Position numbers and translations under genes: made by a program. A stretch of 64,000 nucleotides of DNA from positions 11,877 through 75,876 of the forward strand of contig JBBRPR010000043.1 in NCBI GenBank assembly GCA_038227875.1. Reading direction: 5' to 3'. Shown piece after piece: positions 2,497 to 9,835 of the stretch (position 1 is its first letter; every line of letters begins with the position of its first letter). Under the pieces are notes generated by a model. The model saw only the letters and a list, made by a program, of their open reading frames with translations. It was not told the origin of the DNA and did not search any database. The stretch comes from Planctomycetota bacterium. Lineage in GTDB: Bacteria > Planctomycetota > SZUA-567 > H5-PLA8.

Positions 2497-4230
2497 ATGC
2501 AAAAACAATACGGATTCGCACGCGTAGCGTGCATTGCTCTGGTTCTGGCGCTCGCTGGATTTTCATATGCGATTGCGACAGCCGGACGAAGCACCGAAGT
2601 AGCCACGGTGGCTGCGCGCACGGTGTCTTCCAACCTGAATTTCTCCAATCCGTTTGTCGATCCAACTTTGAAGTCGACGCTCGACCGCGACCTGGGTGAT
2701 GCCGTCATCGGCAGCGCCGTGGTCCGCCGCGTCACCGCGACCGGCGGCGTGCGTCCGTACTCATTTACCTCGACGTCGGTGAGCACCAACTCGTCGCTGG
2801 GCCTCGACAGCAGTGGTCTCTTCCACACCCTGCCCGTCACCCCAGCCTCGGGCACGCAGTTGACCACCTACGGTCCGCTGACGGGCACACCAGGCAACTT
2901 CCGCTTCAACGTTACGGTCGCCGATAACTCGGGCACCAACGTTCCCAAGACCGAACCGTACCGCCTGTCGATTTTCTCCAATTCGACAACGGCGTTCCGC
3001 TTCGCCATCACCAGCCTGAGCAACGCCACGCAATTCAACGAGTACGCTGACTACATTTCCACGATCAACGGTCATGGACCGCTGAGCTACACGGTGTCGA
3101 ACGTGACGGCAGGTGGCACTTCCGCTGCCAGTCTCGAATCCCTCGGCCTGACCATCGGCAAGGACGGCCAGATCTTCGGCATCCCGCTGAAGGCTGGCGC
3201 GATCACTTTCACGGTGGTGGCCAAGGACAGCACCGGCGCGACGGCTTCACCCCGCACGGGTGTGGGTTCCAGCCAGACATTCACGATCAACGTCGCCGGC
3301 AACTCGGTGATTCAGGACGTCATTGTGGTCACCTCACTGACCTGCAGCGGCGATAGCGCCGTCGGCGGCAAGGACAAGATCTCCATCAGCGGCGTCTACA
3401 ATCCGCTGCTCTTCAGCTCGATCGGCACGACGATCACGCTGCGCCTCAATGGCTATGTGATCACCGGCACGATCGGATCGCGGGGCAAGATCTCCAACCT
3501 GAGCCTGCAGGACTTCGCGGCCCGGGCCAAGGTTCCGACACTCAAGGGAACGGTTAACGGCAAGGGTCAGTTCAAGCTGCAGGTTTCGAACGAAAGCTTC
3601 GGGCGCAGTGGACTGCTCGGTACGATCGTTTCGAACGTCAATGCCATGGTTGAAGTGCAGATCGGCACCAAGGTCGACGGCTTCAACGCCGTCTCGCTCA
3701 ACAACAAGGGCCGCGGCACGAAGTTTGGACTGGGCTTCAAGCTGGGCCAGGCCAATAAGAAGTCGGGCCCGCTCAATGCCTCCCTCGGCGGTGCGTTTAT
3801 CCTGACCTCCGTGGCCGGCAAGGACGACACGAAGGGCGCCACCGGCGACTCCTTCAAGGTCGGTATTATCGCGGTTCCGCCCAGCGGCATCACCTTCGCT
3901 GGCGCAACCAAGGCGACGGTATCGGTGGGAACATCCTTCACTGATAGCCCGTCGGTCACGTCCAGCAAGGGTATCGTCAAGACGGGCCGCATCGACGCCA
4001 AGCAGGCCAACAAGGTCACGCGCCTGTCGCTCTCCGAAAAGGGCAAGGGTAGCTATCAGACCAGCTTCCTGGCCTCCTCGCAGACGGGCATCAAGCTCTC
4101 GTCGGCCGGTACTTCGACTGGCGTCCCGTACGCGACGGGAATCACGATCAACAGCACCACGCCGTTTGGCGGCGTCGGCTCCCTGTTGATCTTCCCGAAG
4201 GGTAAGGGTTACACCAGCGCTCAGAAGTAA
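2497..4230 (+). CDS. Secreted Ser/Thr/Gly-rich protein with putative Ig (He_PIG-like) domains
   Basis: Signal peptide; TATGGVRPYSF and GLTIGKDGQIFGIPLKAGAITFTVVAKDS are putative-Ig motifs; strong codon bias. Confidence 0.8.
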   Translation: MQKQYGFARVACIALVLALAGFSYAIATAGRSTEVATVAARTVSSNLNFSNPFVDPTLKSTLDRDLGDAVIGSAVVRRVTATGGVRPYSFTSTSVSTNSSLGLDSSGLFHTLPVTPASGTQLTTYGPLTGTPGNFRFNVTVADNSGTNVPKTEPYRLSIFSNSTTAFRFAITSLSNATQFNEYADYISTINGHGPLSYTVSNVTAGGTSAASLESLGLTIGKDGQIFGIPLKAGAITFTVVAKDSTGATASPRTGVGSSQTFTINVAGNSVIQDVIVVTSLTCSGDSAVGGKDKISISGVYNPLLFSSIGTTITLRLNGYVITGTIGSRGKISNLSLQDFAARAKVPTLKGTVNGKGQFKLQVSNESFGRSGLLGTIVSNVNAMVEVQIGTKVDGFNAVSLNNKGRGTKFGLGFKLGQANKKSGPLNASLGGAFILTSVAGKDDTKGATGDSFKVGIIAVPPSGITFAGATKATVSVGTSFTDSPSVTSSKGIVKTGRIDAKQANKVTRLSLSEKGKGSYQTSFLASSQTGIKLSSAGTSTGVPYATGITINSTTPFGGVGSLLIFPKGKGYTSAQK

Positions 4231-4526: not shown

Positions 4527-6416
4527 GTGTTACTCGCTAAGAGCCAGACCGTTCGGCGTGCTGTGATCCTGGGGCTGATCCTCGCCGTCGCCGGTTTCTG
4601 TTATGCCACCGGTACGAGTTACGCCACGGCCAGCCGTTCGACCGACGTGCCTGAAGCCGGGCCGCGGCTCGTGGGCAGCTCCAACCTGCGCTTCATGAAT
4701 CCGCGTCTGCCCACCGGTGAATTCGATCTCGGTGACGCCACCTACGGATCGATGATCCAGCGTTACGTCACCGCCGCCGGCGGCGTGCGGCCGTACAAGT
4801 ACGTCTCCCCCGATTTGTTGAGCAAGCTGGCCAACAATTCCAGCCTGTTCCTCGGGAACTCCGGTTACCTGTTTGGCTCCATCACCTCTAATACCCGTCC
4901 GCCGTTGGTCTTTTCCGTTACCCTGACGGACAGCACCGGTTCCCAGACTCGAAATCAGTCCGTGAACGGTACGTTCCGCATCGGCATTCAGCTCGGTGGT
5001 GCGCAGAGCTTCCGCTTCGCGGTCGACAACATCAACAACGGCCAGAAGGGCCTCAGCTACGCCGGAGCACTCGACACACTCGGCGGAGTGGGTACCGTGA
5101 CCTACTCGGTGATCCCCAACACCCTGACCGTCAACGGCACGCCGCGCGGCACCAATGGCGCGCTGGAGACCCTCGGCCTCTCGCTCTCCGCCGACGGCAC
5201 GATCAGCGGCAAGCCGCTGGAATCCGGACTCGTCAGCTTCAAGGCACACGCCACGGATACGCTGAAGCGCACCGCCAACGACCGCACCAACACGGTGCCC
5301 GACCAGGTTGTTGCGTTCAATATTGAAGACAACGCCATCGCCTCGACCGATTACACGACGCTCAACTGCACCGTCCGCGGCGACCTGGGCGCCACCAACA
5401 AGGACACGATCAAGTTCAACGGCCTGATCAACATGACCGGCAACGCCATCAACTCGCTGCGCTTCACGACGTTCCAGTTCCGCCTGGGCGCCTACAACGT
5501 CACCGGCCGGGTGGACATCAGCGGCAACGTGGTGAACATCAAGCAGAACACGCTCAAGCTTCCCGACGGCAGCCAGTTCAAGGCGAAGATCGACGCTCAC
5601 AAGGGCACGCTCTCCGGTTCCTTGAGCAAAGCCACCGTCGCCAAGCTGCTCAACGGCGCCAGCATCACCGACCGCAGCACGTCGCGCCTGGGCATGCAGT
5701 TCGTGCTCTCCAACAACGTCGTTTGCGCCGATACGCTGGAATTCGCTTCGCGCCGCAAGGGCAACAAGATCGCGCTGGATTACAACATGAGCCGGACGGG
5801 CAGACCGCTGGGCGGCACCTTCCAGATCCTCACTGTTGTCGGCAAGGACGGCACCACGATCAGCGGCACCCGCGGTGACGCCTGGAACGCCAAGTTCCTG
5901 ATGATTCCGCGCTTCGGCATCGACACCAATCCCGGTCTCGACTCGCTTTCGTCGATCACCGTCCGCATCGGCCAGAACTTCGTCCAGAAGATTCCTGCCA
6001 ACGCATTCACCAGCAACAAGAGCGGGAGCATCAGCCTGCTGAAGCCGGCGACCAAGGGCGAACAGGTCGCCAAGTTCAAGCTCGATGGCCGCAAGTTCGT
6101 CGGCGAAGTCCAGACGTTCGTGCTCGGCTCGACGCGCACCTTCATCTCGCCGGCCGTAGACGTGGTCAATCCGGCCTCGCCTGCCGGCAATGGCGCCATC
6201 CCGATCAGCAGCTTTGTGACTACCGGCTTCGATCTGGGAATCGACCTGGCCCGCACCGGCAACAACGCCAGCCTCACCGGCGAATACGGCAAGCTGGTCA
6301 TCGGCGTGCCCAACCAGAAGGCCTGGGTCGACAACATCGGCAAGGCCAGCCGCGGCTTCCAGATTCCCGCCGCGCCACAGCCCGTTCCGAACAACAACTT
6401 CCGCTTGGATAAGTAA
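4527..6416 (+). CDS. Secreted putative-Ig-domain protein, paralogue of 2497..4230
   Basis: GTG start with AAGGAG RBS; shares RST.V...SSNL.F.NP, DLGDA, T..GGVRPY, FRFA and LE.LGL motifs with the upstream gene. Confidence 0.8.
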   Translation: MLLAKSQTVRRAVILGLILAVAGFCYATGTSYATASRSTDVPEAGPRLVGSSNLRFMNPRLPTGEFDLGDATYGSMIQRYVTAAGGVRPYKYVSPDLLSKLANNSSLFLGNSGYLFGSITSNTRPPLVFSVTLTDSTGSQTRNQSVNGTFRIGIQLGGAQSFRFAVDNINNGQKGLSYAGALDTLGGVGTVTYSVIPNTLTVNGTPRGTNGALETLGLSLSADGTISGKPLESGLVSFKAHATDTLKRTANDRTNTVPDQVVAFNIEDNAIASTDYTTLNCTVRGDLGATNKDTIKFNGLINMTGNAINSLRFTTFQFRLGAYNVTGRVDISGNVVNIKQNTLKLPDGSQFKAKIDAHKGTLSGSLSKATVAKLLNGASITDRSTSRLGMQFVLSNNVVCADTLEFASRRKGNKIALDYNMSRTGRPLGGTFQILTVVGKDGTTISGTRGDAWNAKFLMIPRFGIDTNPGLDSLSSITVRIGQNFVQKIPANAFTSNKSGSISLLKPATKGEQVAKFKLDGRKFVGEVQTFVLGSTRTFISPAVDVVNPASPAGNGAIPISSFVTTGFDLGIDLARTGNNASLTGEYGKLVIGVPNQKAWVDNIGKASRGFQIPAAPQPVPNNNFRLDK

Positions 6417-6437: not shown

Positions 6438-6469
6438 AAAAACTCCCCGCGCAAGCGGGGAGTTTTTTT
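6438..6469. terminator. Bidirectional Rho-independent terminator
   Basis: AAAAACTCCCCGC-gcaa-GCGGGGAGTTTTTTT between convergent genes. Confidence 0.9.
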
Positions 6470-6504: not shown

Positions 6505-7974
6505 TCAAGCCTTATTCCACCCCTTCACGATATTCTCCGTGGTGAGCTGTGCGTAGAGCTCCTCGATCTGCTCGCGGGAATTGGAGACCCGAATGTCGCG
6601 CTCCAGGCTGGTCTTCCGGTTGGGGGAGAAGTCAGTGAAGTGGACCACGAAGCCGGGATAGTTGCTGCCTTCGCCTTCCTTGTTCGTCTTCCACATCACG
6701 AATTTGCGAACCATTGTCTGGCCCTTCAGCACTTTGGTGTAGACCTCGCGCTTCAGGACTTCACTCTTGGGCAGTGAAAGCTTGCGCGCATCGGCTTCCA
6801 GCATGCGCACTTCGACCAGGTCGGAGACCTGCTTGATGCGCAGGTCCGCGGGCTTGACCTGCTTGTCTTCGCGCCGGCGCACGAACTGCGGCGAGATCAC
6901 GCTGACCAGCGGCAGGCGGCGGATCACGTTGTACTTCTTCGCCTTGCTGTCGTAATCGAGGACCATGCGGTCGATCGAACTGCCGCGCGTGGTCTGCGAA
7001 ATCAGATCCAGGCAGCTCATTTCAATCACCCATTCGGGGCGGACCATTTCATACGCGACGTGATCGGGATTGACTTCGGCGTACTCGCTTTCGACCACGG
7101 TGTCCTTCAGGTCTGAATAAAACGAGCGGCGGTCTTCGTCGGAAAAGCCACCGCCGACGCGCGCGAAGAGATGAAACGTCCCGTCGTCGCGCATCAGCGC
7201 CACGAGCATGTCGTGGAGCATGCCTTTGCGTTCGTCGGTCGATTCAGTAAACCCCACGACCACGGCGTCCATGTTGTGCCGCGGTTTGATCTTGAACATG
7301 CCGGCCGTGTCGCTGCGCGCGACCAGGCCTTCGTCGCCGCCGGTCTCGACCCACTGTTCGAATTTCTTCTCGATCTCCGCCGTGGACTTGGCGAAAATCG
7401 CTTCGACCGGCGTCACACGCTCGCCGCCGTCGAAGATCTTCCGGATGCGCTTCCAGGTCTCGGGAAACGCGGAGACGACCGGCTTGTCGTCGGTCTCGAG
7501 CAGATCGAAGACCGCGAAGCGCAGGCTGCCCAGGTCCTCCTTGCTCTCCGGCTGGCGCGCGACGCGGCTGACGTCGTGAACGCGCGCGCGTTTGCCGTCA
7601 CTGCGCTGCACGTACATTTCACCCGCGACCAGCGCCGCTTTAACGCCGGCCTTGTTGAGCAGTTCCGCCGCTTCGTTGATGAACGGCAGACCGACGCGGA
7701 CGGTGCCGCCGGGGTTAACGGTGATCGCCTGCTTGCCGTCGTAGACCAGCACCGTGAACTCGCCGTCGACCTTGCGGCTGACGTGGTACTCGCCTTCCGG
7801 CAACTTCTTTTTGATGTCGTCCTTGCCCAGTGCCATCATGCGCGAGCCGGAGAGGCGGCGGTATTCCTGAGCGCGGCGGTGGGAGGTTGGATCGGAAAGC
7901 TCCAGCGCGCTGCCGACAGCGTAGTCGCCGAACTTCGTCTCCAGGCGGCTCTTATTGATGTTCAACGTTACCAT
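6505..7974 (-). CDS. ATP-dependent DNA ligase (adenylation + OB domains) with WGR-like C-terminal extension
   Basis: Motif I SRKVDGEF, III LVAGEM, IIIa FAVFDLL, IV DEGLVAR, V FKIKP, OB domain DAVVVG...VGGGFS, VI PQFVRRREDK. Confidence 0.85.
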   Translation of the reverse strand: MVTLNINKSRLETKFGDYAVGSALELSDPTSHRRAQEYRRLSGSRMMALGKDDIKKKLPEGEYHVSRKVDGEFTVLVYDGKQAITVNPGGTVRVGLPFINEAAELLNKAGVKAALVAGEMYVQRSDGKRARVHDVSRVARQPESKEDLGSLRFAVFDLLETDDKPVVSAFPETWKRIRKIFDGGERVTPVEAIFAKSTAEIEKKFEQWVETGGDEGLVARSDTAGMFKIKPRHNMDAVVVGFTESTDERKGMLHDMLVALMRDDGTFHLFARVGGGFSDEDRRSFYSDLKDTVVESEYAEVNPDHVAYEMVRPEWVIEMSCLDLISQTTRGSSIDRMVLDYDSKAKKYNVIRRLPLVSVISPQFVRRREDKQVKPADLRIKQVSDLVEVRMLEADARKLSLPKSEVLKREVYTKVLKGQTMVRKFVMWKTNKEGEGSNYPGFVVHFTDFSPNRKTSLERDIRVSNSREQIEELYAQLTTENIVKGWNKA

Positions 7975-8019
7975 GAGAACCTCAGGGGCCAGGGTAAGGG
8001 GTCAGAGTGGGAAGTGTGC

Positions 8020-8964
8020 TCAGCTCTTCTTGCGTCCTTTTTTCGGCGCGGGCTTTTTCTCTTCGGACTTTTCGGGCTCCGCCGGAGTTTCTTCGACGAC
8101 CTCGGCCTTTACTTTTTTCAATTTCTTCGCCGGAACATCCGCGGGCTTCTCCGCTGCTTTTTCAGCTTTTACCGGCAGCGCGGGAGCCGCAGGTTCCGGC
8201 GGCTTTTCAGCCACGGGCGCGGCCGGTGCAGCGAGCGGAGCGGGTGGGGCCGGCGGTGCGGCGATCGGCTCCGGCGCCTTCAATTCCATGTTGGAGAGAT
8301 GCAGGATCAGGCAGTACTTTTCGCCCTGCGTGCGCCCTTCCAGAAAGCCGCGGTACGACGTGCCGCCGCGCTGAAAGACCAGCGGCAGATTCGATTTCGG
8401 CCCCGCGCCCATCAACATCAGGCTCTGCTTCTCTTCCAGATCCTTGGCCATCGCGAAAAGGAAGTCGAAGGTCAGGCCGTTGACGTGAACAATCTGCAGC
8501 TTCGTCGCGAAGACGAATTTGTTGAAGACTTCACTCTTCTTCATCAGCTTGCCCGACCACTTCAGCGGCGTTTCCGTGGCGGTGTTCGGCGGCAGCACTT
8601 TGCGCGGTCGGCGTTCTTTCTCGGTGCCGTCGGGATTGCGGACGATCTCCCACTCCTGAACCTTGTGGACGATCTTCTTGTCGGCGTCGATGTACACCCG
8701 CGACGTGTCGCTCAGGAAACGGCCGTAGCTTTCGAAGTCGATTTCCGGATCGCCCTTGAGCAGCAGCTCCGACACTTTCTCGAGCGCACCGGCCTGCTTG
8801 ATCAGCTCATCGCAATCGCGATCGATGGTGCAACGCAGGATGCGGAAGTTCGACGCCTGCCGCCCCTTCTCATCCAGCCACCGCACGCGCAGCGGCGTGC
8901 GCACCGTCTCCGTATTGACGATGGCATCGCGATTGTTGCTGTTGGCGAGATTGATCGAGCCCAT
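8020..8964 (-). CDS. Hypothetical protein, candidate divergent Ku-like subunit with Pro/Ala/Lys-rich basic tail
   Basis: AGGAG RBS; 314 aa; shares motifs with 9017..9634; ends PAPKKGRKKS. The Ku assignment is by-eye inference. Confidence 0.7.
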   Translation of the reverse strand: MGSINLANSNNRDAIVNTETVRTPLRVRWLDEKGRQASNFRILRCTIDRDCDELIKQAGALEKVSELLLKGDPEIDFESYGRFLSDTSRVYIDADKKIVHKVQEWEIVRNPDGTEKERRPRKVLPPNTATETPLKWSGKLMKKSEVFNKFVFATKLQIVHVNGLTFDFLFAMAKDLEEKQSLMLMGAGPKSNLPLVFQRGGTSYRGFLEGRTQGEKYCLILHLSNMELKAPEPIAAPPAPPAPLAAPAAPVAEKPPEPAAPALPVKAEKAAEKPADVPAKKLKKVKAEVVEETPAEPEKSEEKKPAPKKGRKKS

Positions 8965-9016
8965 TTTAACTCCTGGGGACTGAGTCCGGGGTCTTGGGAC
9001 CGGGGAACAACCGCAC

Positions 9017-9634
9017 TCACATCATTCCAAAGTCCAACGATTCGTCTTCGCCTTCGGCTGCTTCGGTATCGTCTTCCACGGGCGCCGCCGCCTGTTCCAA
9101 ACCTACGAAATGAATCGACGTCGGCTGACCCACGCACATGAAGACCGTGCCGTCCTGTCCGGCGAGCAGGAAGCCGACGTCCGCCTCCAGTCCGCCGCGG
9201 AAACTATAGGGGAACGAGAAGATCGTCCCTTTCTTGAGCTCCGCGGCCAGCGGCGCGAGATCGCCCTCGCAGCGCAGCACGTAGACGCCTTTGATGTTGT
9301 GCGAGAGGTAATCTTCGAGTGTCGCGAGCTTGGTCAGCGGCACCGGCGCACCGTAGGTTGACTGCACCGGCGTGATGGTCCGGCCTTCGGGGTCGACGGG
9401 CTGCAGCTTGGTTTTGTCGAGCCACAAACCATCGGACGAAAGATACGCAAACGAGCTCCCGCCCTGTCCGACGATGGTGCGGCCGTCGTCGGCGAGGGTG
9501 GCCAGCTGGCATTTGCGGCTCTTGCCGTCGAGCGCTTCGACATCGACGAAGCCGTAAAGCTTCGTGCGGTCGACCTTGTCGGGACTGCAGACAAAGTCCG
9601 TGCCGTTGAACTGAAACGTCAGAGCTCTCGCCAT
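9017..9634 (-). CDS. Hypothetical protein, candidate divergent Ku-like subunit with acidic tail
   Basis: ATG at 9634 (MARALTF) preceded by GGGGTG; 205 aa; ends EDDTEAAEGEDESLDFGMM; first gene of the ligase operon. Confidence 0.7.
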   Translation of the reverse strand: MARALTFQFNGTDFVCSPDKVDRTKLYGFVDVEALDGKSRKCQLATLADDGRTIVGQGGSSFAYLSSDGLWLDKTKLQPVDPEGRTITPVQSTYGAPVPLTKLATLEDYLSHNIKGVYVLRCEGDLAPLAAELKKGTIFSFPYSFRGGLEADVGFLLAGQDGTVFMCVGQPTSIHFVGLEQAAAPVEDDTEAAEGEDESLDFGMM

Positions 9635-9835
9635 ATCCGCACCCCAATTTATAGGTTGTAGTGTCAAAACATAACAGAGCGCCGTCGAACGGGCAAGAAG
9701 GCTTGGCGAGCGGGCACTCACATCACAAATTGACCACCCGCCGCTCAGAAACACCATCTAATTGGCCAGCGCGCCTATTCTCAATCCCCTTCGCATCTGA
9801 TTAACTGAAAACTTCATGACCGGAGAACCTCAACA

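Follow-up and report, generated by a model that had tools for sequence, protein, structure and literature searches.

In bacteria, non-homologous end joining (NHEJ), as described in Mycobacterium and B. subtilis, couples Ku (PF02735, COG1273), which acts as a homodimer, to the ATP-dependent ligase LigD, in which polymerase and phosphoesterase domains accompany the ligase. In eukaryotes the ring is built of two unlike Ku-fold subunits, Ku70 and Ku80. The same barrel is found in the Ku-like INTS13/INTS14 and in SPOC domains (PHF3, SHARP/SPEN, FPA, RBM15), which are eukaryotic peptide-binding modules of ~125-165 residues with no long insert and no link to a ligase. Here we describe a three-gene cassette in a 64,000-nucleotide stretch of a Planctomycetota bacterium genome (assembly GCA_038227875.1, contig JBBRPR010000043.1, positions 11,877 to 75,876; hereafter the window), which encodes two uncharacterised proteins, A and B, and an ATP-dependent DNA ligase. 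The cassette is probably an end-joining system, in which a heterodimeric Ku-fold ring recruits its dedicated ligase. This proposal is built on gene order, on the ligase motifs, on the Ku fold of both protein models and on the linkage and co-occurrence of the three genes, together with a predicted heterodimer; from these we infer that the ring closes, binds DNA ends, recruits the ligase and acts in repair.

The cassette is similar to bacterial Ku and LigD in the modelled barrel, whose long insert sits at the position of the Ku arm, in a dimer interface predicted to be made of inserts and barrel strands, and in an adjoining gene for an ATP-dependent ligase. It differs in that two unlike subunits, with no detectable PF02735 similarity, replace the homodimer; its ligase has no polymerase or phosphoesterase domain and instead carries its own N- and C-terminal extensions, and the cassette is far more conserved than canonical Ku, while most of the tested genomes that carry it gave no PF02735 hit. 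With Ku70/Ku80 it shares two unlike Ku-fold subunits predicted to embrace one another, and Ku80 chains are among the top fold matches of both A and B. However, A and B lack the vWA, SAP and Ku80 C-terminal helical domains, amount to only 205 and ~235 amino acids (aa), and have no sequence relationship to the eukaryotic proteins; the heterodimer of the cassette would have arisen independently in bacteria, apart from Ku70/Ku80.

According to the open reading frame (ORF) list of the window, the three genes lie on the minus strand in one orientation, in the order A, B, ligase (Table 1). An earlier note on this DNA, made from the letters alone, had described three co-oriented genes of 205, 314 and 489 aa separated by gaps of about 45-52 bp, and this description was exact: the gaps measure 52 bp between A and B (8965-9016) and 45 bp between B and the ligase (7975-8019). 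The start of gene A was placed at 9634 rather than at the upstream ATG at 9757, M1 being nearly invariant among 85 aligned homologues of ~203-205 aa. Neither A nor B belongs to a family in Pfam, NCBIfam, PADLOC or PHROGs. Relatives of A form 536 clusters at 90% identity and 754 at 50%, and those of B form 3,495 clusters at 90% identity; in both cases they are labelled 'hypothetical' or are unnamed. The freely accessible full-text literature searched yielded no published description of the A/B family.

In order to gain insight into the fold of the two proteins, AlphaFold2 models based on the alignments of these families were compared with solved structures. The Ku beta-barrel core was present in both models; the barrel parts mostly exceeded 85 in predicted local distance difference test score (pLDDT), and the whole models averaged 68.8 (A) and 65.2 (B). 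When A was searched against the PDB with Foldseek, the best match was B. subtilis Ku (E 1.2e-4), and all of the matches listed were Ku or Ku-containing entries. A Foldseek-independent search against 48,161 representative chains likewise placed bacterial Ku at ranks 1 and 2 (9vnq_A, Z 11.3, root-mean-square deviation 3.1, 102 aligned residues; 9i91_A, Z 11.2), followed by the Ku-like INTS13/14 (Z 9.4), Ku80 (9.3) and SPOC (9.0-8.3), the three groups together spanning 9.4-8.2, with Z falling to 4.0 past rank 16. Against the viral library BFVD, A gave two hits at E<=1e-3, both of them phage Ku proteins. For B, the best Foldseek match in the PDB was M. tuberculosis Ku (E 1.8e-5), all of the matches listed were again Ku or Ku-containing, and the top ten spanned 227-250 columns; VIA gave Z 11.2-10.9 for bacterial Ku and 10.7 for SPOC. 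In 10-residue blocks, the B model scored 87-95 over most of residues 141-220, and in the A model the barrel was confident and the long middle insert poor. Mu Gam was absent from the fold matches listed, which does not imply its exclusion.

Since SPOC and Ku-like INTS13/INTS14 share this barrel (Z 8.3-9.4 for A and up to 10.7 for B), the length of the matched region was used to distinguish them. Residues 1-176 of A match residues 19-188 of B. subtilis Ku (176 versus 170 residues), whereas the matched SPOC chain comprises residues 439-565, or 127 residues; with a span as long as the one in B. subtilis Ku and longer than the one in SPOC, A carries a Ku-sized insert that SPOC lacks. The inserts of ~84 residues in A and ~118 in B sit between the N-terminal strand pair and the remaining barrel, and have low confidence in the monomer models. 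Thus, despite Z values of 8.3-10.7, neither protein is a compact barrel of ~125-165 residues without a long insert. The earlier note had inferred a Ku core fold in both proteins, and the models, which match Ku best by Foldseek and by Z score, for B in a near tie with SPOC, bear this out; the outcome set beforehand as refuting it did not occur.

Sequence comparison gave a different picture. Neither A nor B gave any Pfam hit at E<=1, the Ku family PF02735 included, and profile searches of PDB sequences with either protein returned 0 hits at E<=10. When aligned with hhalign, using narrow or diverse alignments (among them a diverse A alignment of 99 sequences and a set of 25 canonical Ku sequences), the pairs A-B, A-Ku and B-Ku reached probabilities of 0.2-2.9%, with no link between any of them; against the 25 canonical Ku sequences the values were 0.2% for A and 0.8% for B. 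The best hhalign match, between the inserts of A (60-97) and B (87-126), covered 38 columns at a probability of 2.9% and was treated as no evidence. The Ku fold is thus supported, but, with no detectable sequence link, membership of PF02735 and A/B paralogy are not. The by-eye alignment of A and B to Ku that the earlier note had offered could not be reproduced by any sequence method, and of its description of A and B as 'divergent Ku-like paralogues' the Ku-like fold stands, whereas paralogy finds no footing at the sequence level (hhalign <=2.9%). Atlas look-alikes of B were also considered and set aside; at 0.91-0.93 they consisted only of unannotated clusters, some labelled viral, and a 'DNA polymerase III beta' cluster at 0.89 fell under the useful range.

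To examine association between the two proteins, the A+B complex was predicted, and an interface score (ipSAE) of 0.67 was obtained (runs 0.67, 0.68 and 0.37), against 0.00 for the best of three controls. Among solved complexes, 116 of 157 attained 0.67, and among mismatched pairs, 2 of 215 did so. Contact agreement between the runs was at least 73%, and partner pLDDT at least 60. The predicted interface is very large, with 361 contacts, and involves the inserts (A 21-87; B 21-44 and 84-121) and barrel strands (A 112-117 and 170-179; B 151-155 and 211-218). These models suggest that A and B form an intertwined heterodimer, with an interface of insert and barrel strand such as would be expected of a Ku-type embrace, in keeping with the heterodimer that had been proposed from the letters.

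The third gene product has the hallmarks of an ATP-dependent DNA ligase: its nucleotidyltransferase motifs include the catalytic lysine, and its OB domain carries motif VI. KVDG (68), EGLV (215), FKIKP (227) and REDK (368), which we take to be ligase motifs I, IV, V and VI, are all present, and K68, D70, G71, E215, G216, K228, K230, D370 and K371 are invariant in 21 aligned orthologues. In Pfam the window protein was hit by PF04679 alone (3.4e-8), although PF01068 was hit by two of the four orthologous ligases scanned. The best NCBIfam model was the NHEJ-type ligase TIGR02779 (5.8e-15), at 55.3 bits against a cut-off of 227.75, and the protein fell under the cut-off of all seven NCBIfam ligase models that it matched; other matches were to phrog_114 (4.7e-20) and the archaeal ligase 3rr5 (5.9e-12). 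No LigD polymerase/primase or 3'-phosphoesterase domain was found in the window ligase or in the four orthologues, in which the hits were PF04679, PF01068 and weaker RNA-ligase and capping-enzyme models in the same core. The 55 and 104 residues outside the core match no family and are too short for a polymerase or phosphoesterase domain, and the earlier statement that this protein has all of the ligase motifs and neither LigD domain was thereby upheld. Ligase-only bacterial ATP-dependent ligases, including one of 341 aa encoded elsewhere in the same genome, share the nucleotidyltransferase and OB core with all catalytic motifs; they differ from the window ligase, which adds the 55-residue N-terminal extension and a conserved 104-residue C-terminal domain. 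This domain has 22 positions, from R409 to W486, that are invariant in the 21 orthologues; it is present in 71 of 80 surveyed loci, gave no Pfam match better than E 0.027 and reached Atlas scores of <=0.84.

We considered whether the barrels of A and B might instead serve a role away from DNA, such as RNA or peptide binding, with the enzyme sealing RNA. The SPOC scores close to those of Ku for B would suit such a role, as would the PF09414 RNA_ligase hit in three of the four orthologous ligases (best E 5.4e-7). DNA-ligase models nevertheless fit better (PF01068 at 1.5e-13 in the same orthologue, TIGR02779 at 5.8e-15, phrog_114 at 4.7e-20), the OB domain carries an invariant DK at 370-371, and A, whose insert is Ku-sized, scores 2 Z units higher against bacterial Ku than against SPOC. 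We therefore regard a role in RNA sealing as highly improbable.

A scan of one genome per species revealed at least 580 genomes encoding B, and the 80 best B loci from other genomes were surveyed. The titles of these loci named Planctomycetota (60), Myxococcota (7), Verrucomicrobiota (4), Pseudomonadota-labelled bins (4), Spirochaetota (2), Cyanobacteriota (2) and Acidobacteriota (1). A was present in 71 loci, an orthologous ligase with the C-terminal domain in 72 and all three genes in 66, some of the misses being due to contig ends; the other outcome that the earlier note had named as refuting, homologues not linked to the ligase in other genomes, thus did not occur. Where A was not adjacent to B, it was found elsewhere in the genome in four of five cases tested. 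Clustering of every flanking ORF yielded no further real conserved neighbour beyond 11 of the 80 loci, the other large flank clusters being opposite-strand frames inside the three genes. Those 11 loci (L019, L025, L027, L029, L035, L041, L046, L048, L055, L076 and L082), most of the named ones being Pirellulaceae, have a small divergent ORF of ~91-195 aa on the opposite strand, ~160-710 bp upstream of A, which is absent from the window. No fused forms were found among 866 candidate proteins of 551-2000 aa, which is weak evidence.

The B tree mostly tracks taxonomy, with 10 label changes compared to 19.6 in shuffled trees and as few in 0 of 200 shuffles, a pattern better explained by long vertical inheritance than by frequent transfer. 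B genes from bins labelled Glaciecola, Alcaligenaceae or Pseudomonadota (L026, L083, L017 and L032) nest in planctomycete or myxobacterial clades, and look more like misbinned contigs than gene transfer. Four of the eight loci with no ligase in the flank (L026, L033, L039 and L042) form one clade of B genes (Shimodaira-Hasegawa-like approximate likelihood ratio test support 100) on Pirellulaceae-type contigs; these B genes may be extra copies with a diverged role. In three of the four, A is also missing from the locus, and the L039 genome has A on another contig. Identity of B across phyla is 50-79%, whereas canonical Ku is 27-37% identical within one phylum. In one locus (L005, genome G015), a far more distant ligase (260-1714), 32% identical over its full length and with the C-terminal domain kept (37%), follows a B-like gene truncated at the edge of the contig, so that the family reaches deeper than the 50-79% range of the main survey. 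In another genome (G014, L004/L007), B matches lie in two frames that meet near residue 201, and the A and ligase genes beside them look intact; this split reflects either a frameshift, an error in sequencing or a copy in decay.

The distribution also bears on the idea that the cassette acts on foreign or mobile DNA, for example through defence or counter-defence, or by circularising or capturing linear DNA, rather than in chromosome repair. Patchy spread combined with high identity across phyla, three copies of B in one genome (G170), and a compact three-gene module set in unrelated flanks are all features that would suit such action. On the other hand, PADLOC gave no match, and no relative was found in phage records, plasmids or the viral_contigs collection (28 pattern matches, none confirmed). 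The taxonomic signal in the B tree, together with the GH35 galactosidase and SurA-like isomerase that flank the cassette in the window, also counts against it, and we consider action on foreign DNA very unlikely.

In the genomes examined, the cassette mostly occurred apart from canonical Ku. Among 201 genomes of the window's phylum, B was found in six and PF02735 Ku in 32, and both occurred only in the window's genome, where a canonical ligase-Ku pair (locus L008, contig C21) lies on another contig; its Ku gene starts 3 bp after that of the ligase. Within the window's family, the cassette was present in 5 of 16 genomes. When 15 further cassette genomes were examined, PF02735 was found in three and not in the other 12, for which the cassette may be the only end-joining candidate. 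Under a different explanation, A and B would form a Ku-fold ring or cradle that gives the ligase a platform or clamp on continuous DNA; its task would be to seal nicks, to repair gaps or to support ligation linked to replication, rather than to join two ends. The evidence from fold, heterodimer prediction and linkage applies equally to such a clamp; the cassette has no end-processing polymerase or nuclease, its very high conservation would suit a housekeeping-like role, and the window's genome is already equipped with a canonical ligase-Ku pair. A core role is, however, argued against by the patchy spread (6/201 in the phylum sample, 5/16 in the family), most cassette genomes tested (12/15) are without canonical Ku, and to our knowledge all characterised Ku-fold rings load at ends, which counts against the clamp. 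We judge it unlikely.

We therefore return to end joining, for which the following mechanism may be proposed. A and B would pair asymmetrically, their barrels side by side and their long inserts wrapping each other like the arms of Ku; the pair would close around a DNA end and recruit the ATP-dependent ligase encoded beside it, which would then seal the break. Since there is no polymerase or nuclease in the cassette, it would join ends needing little processing or would borrow host enzymes. The C-terminal tail of A offers a possible means of recruitment. Its 25 residues include nine D/E and no K/R, it was modelled with a pLDDT below 50, and two of its residues, D201 and F202, do not vary among 85 homologues and are at least 90% conserved in a more distant set of 99; the terminal LDFGMM may be a docking motif, which could plausibly engage the basic conserved C-terminal domain of the ligase. 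The C-terminal motif of Ku80 recruits DNA-PKcs, and the acidic tail of A, with its short conserved hydrophobic motif, is reminiscent of it. The tail of B is of another kind (P 20, A 20 and K 16 of 84 residues; low pLDDT), and most B homologues, of 233-245 aa, are without it; in this lineage only, its lysine-rich tail would plausibly add DNA affinity. A study of M. smegmatis Ku describes a Lys-rich low-complexity C-terminal tail with PAKKA repeats (PMC3553676), and the B tail, carried by one subunit, resembles such mycobacterial tails.

Extended to the whole family, this reasoning would make the cassette a second prokaryotic end-joining lineage that cannot be recognised by sequence: an obligate heterodimeric Ku-fold ring, of an origin separate from that of Ku70/Ku80, which a C-terminal docking motif would link to an ATP-dependent ligase of a new class that brings a partner- or DNA-binding domain of its own. 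Constraint of unusual strength would have conserved it in Planctomycetota, Verrucomicrobiota, Myxococcota, filamentous Cyanobacteriota, Leptospiraceae and Acidobacteriota, and in most hosts it would be the sole end-joining system. We put this fuller version forward tentatively, and are slightly inclined to doubt that all of its parts will hold.

Several points weigh against end joining by a heterodimeric Ku. On the barrel alone, the models leave SPOC nearly tied with Ku for B (Z 10.7 vs 11.2), and by the sequence searches, no method ties A or B to Ku, or A to B. The inserts, on which a Ku-type embrace would depend, were poorly modelled in the monomers, with predicted pLDDT below 50 over residues 45-66 of A and 73-110 of B. 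Solved Ku dimers known to the predictor may account for part of the complex score, a single A+B run out of three scored 0.37, and closure of the predicted complex into a ring with a DNA-sized hole is conjectural. No DNA-damage-linked operator was found in 67 upstream regions. Some loci have B alone or A+B with no ligase, and 8 of 80 lack a ligase in the flank. Finally, all three proteins are far more conserved than canonical Ku, and an ordinary end-binding role leaves this conservation unexplained.

The features of the cassette, and those of the canonical pair in the same genome, are collected in Table 1. A purine-rich stretch precedes each of the three starts (GGGGTG for A, AGGAG for B and GAGG for the ligase), and a hairpin follows the last gene, in line with the ribosome-binding site per gene and the closing terminator of the earlier note, the latter now mapped to 6438-6467. 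Because a run of A precedes the hairpin, it could work on either strand. A terminator scan of the region returned 11 terminator-like sites versus 4.8 +/- 2.4 in shuffles; as it was rich in sites, weight was placed only on the strongest, that at 6438-6467. No sigma-70-like promoter was found upstream of gene A (9635-9835), nor was a shared operator, the best palindrome occurring in just 7 of 67 upstream regions. In metatranscriptomes, two runs from two studies contained only three short contigs, all within the ligase gene at 7542-7911 and each with at most one differing letter, and the remaining operon was uncovered; DNA carry-over is possible, so no conclusion was drawn. The genes flanking the cassette are unrelated to it, and comprise two secreted-looking paralogues, a GH35 beta-galactosidase and a SurA-like prolyl isomerase. 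The paralogues (2497-4230 and 4527-6416, plus strand; 577 and 629 aa) are adjacent, with similar early motifs and a hydrophobic N-terminal segment, and gave no Pfam match at E<=0.001.

Table 1. Coordinates of the cassette and related features (positions in the window, except where contig C21 is named).
Feature	Coordinates	Strand	Remarks
Gene A	9634-9017	minus	205 aa; frame 9017-9757, ATG used = 9634
Gene A product, candidate Ku-fold subunit	9017-9634	minus	barrel strands 5-21 and 106-171; insert (arm) ~84 residues, 22-105 (AlphaFold2 model)
C-terminal tail of A, residues 181-205	9020-9094	minus	acidic linker ending LDFGMM; candidate docking motif
Gene B	8964-8020	minus	314 aa; ORF list
Gene B core, residues 1-230, candidate Ku-fold subunit	8275-8964	minus	barrel strands 3-20 and 140-227; insert (arm) ~118 residues, 21-139 (AlphaFold2 model)
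C-terminal tail of B, residues 231-314 plus stop codon	8020-8274	minus	low complexity, Pro/Ala/Lys-rich, lineage-specific
Ligase gene	7974-6505	minus	489 aa; ORF list
ATP-dependent DNA ligase, 489 aa	6505-7974	minus	N-terminal extension 1-55; nucleotidyltransferase and OB ~56-385; C-terminal domain 386-489
Ligase C-terminal domain, residues 386-489	6508-6819	minus	basic, pI 9.6, strongly conserved
Hairpin terminator closing the operon	6438-6467	undefined	13 pairs, 7 G-C, loop 4; T run after, A run before
Upstream intergenic region, presumed promoter region	9635-9835	minus	no recognised element
L008 ligase-only protein, 341 aa	C21 442-1467		PF01068 1.7e-32, PF04679 2.8e-23; no fused polymerase/phosphoesterase
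L008 Ku, 294 aa, Lys/Arg-rich tail	C21 1471-2355		PF02735 3.1e-47; starts 3 bp after the ligase

What is new here is that the logic of a Ku and its ligase is kept, while the proposed Ku consists of two unlike subunits that cannot be recognised from their sequence, and the ligase belongs to a new type. Surveys of bacterial NHEJ seek Ku by sequence, and would consequently score most hosts of the cassette as lacking NHEJ; a 2025 survey of Ku evolution, for instance, began from BLAST with M. tuberculosis Ku, and the available portion of its text makes no mention of Planctomycetes (PMC11936186). If A and B do work as Ku, end joining would be commoner in large-genome environmental bacteria than is now counted, and bacteria would have evolved a two-subunit Ku on their own. 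The cassette would then provide a minimal system, with ~440 residues of core, in which to probe what asymmetry gives to a Ku ring, and a new class of ligase, with an uncharacterised conserved domain, that could be studied and put to use as a tool. That all three proteins are so extremely conserved suggests that more than simple end binding constrains them.

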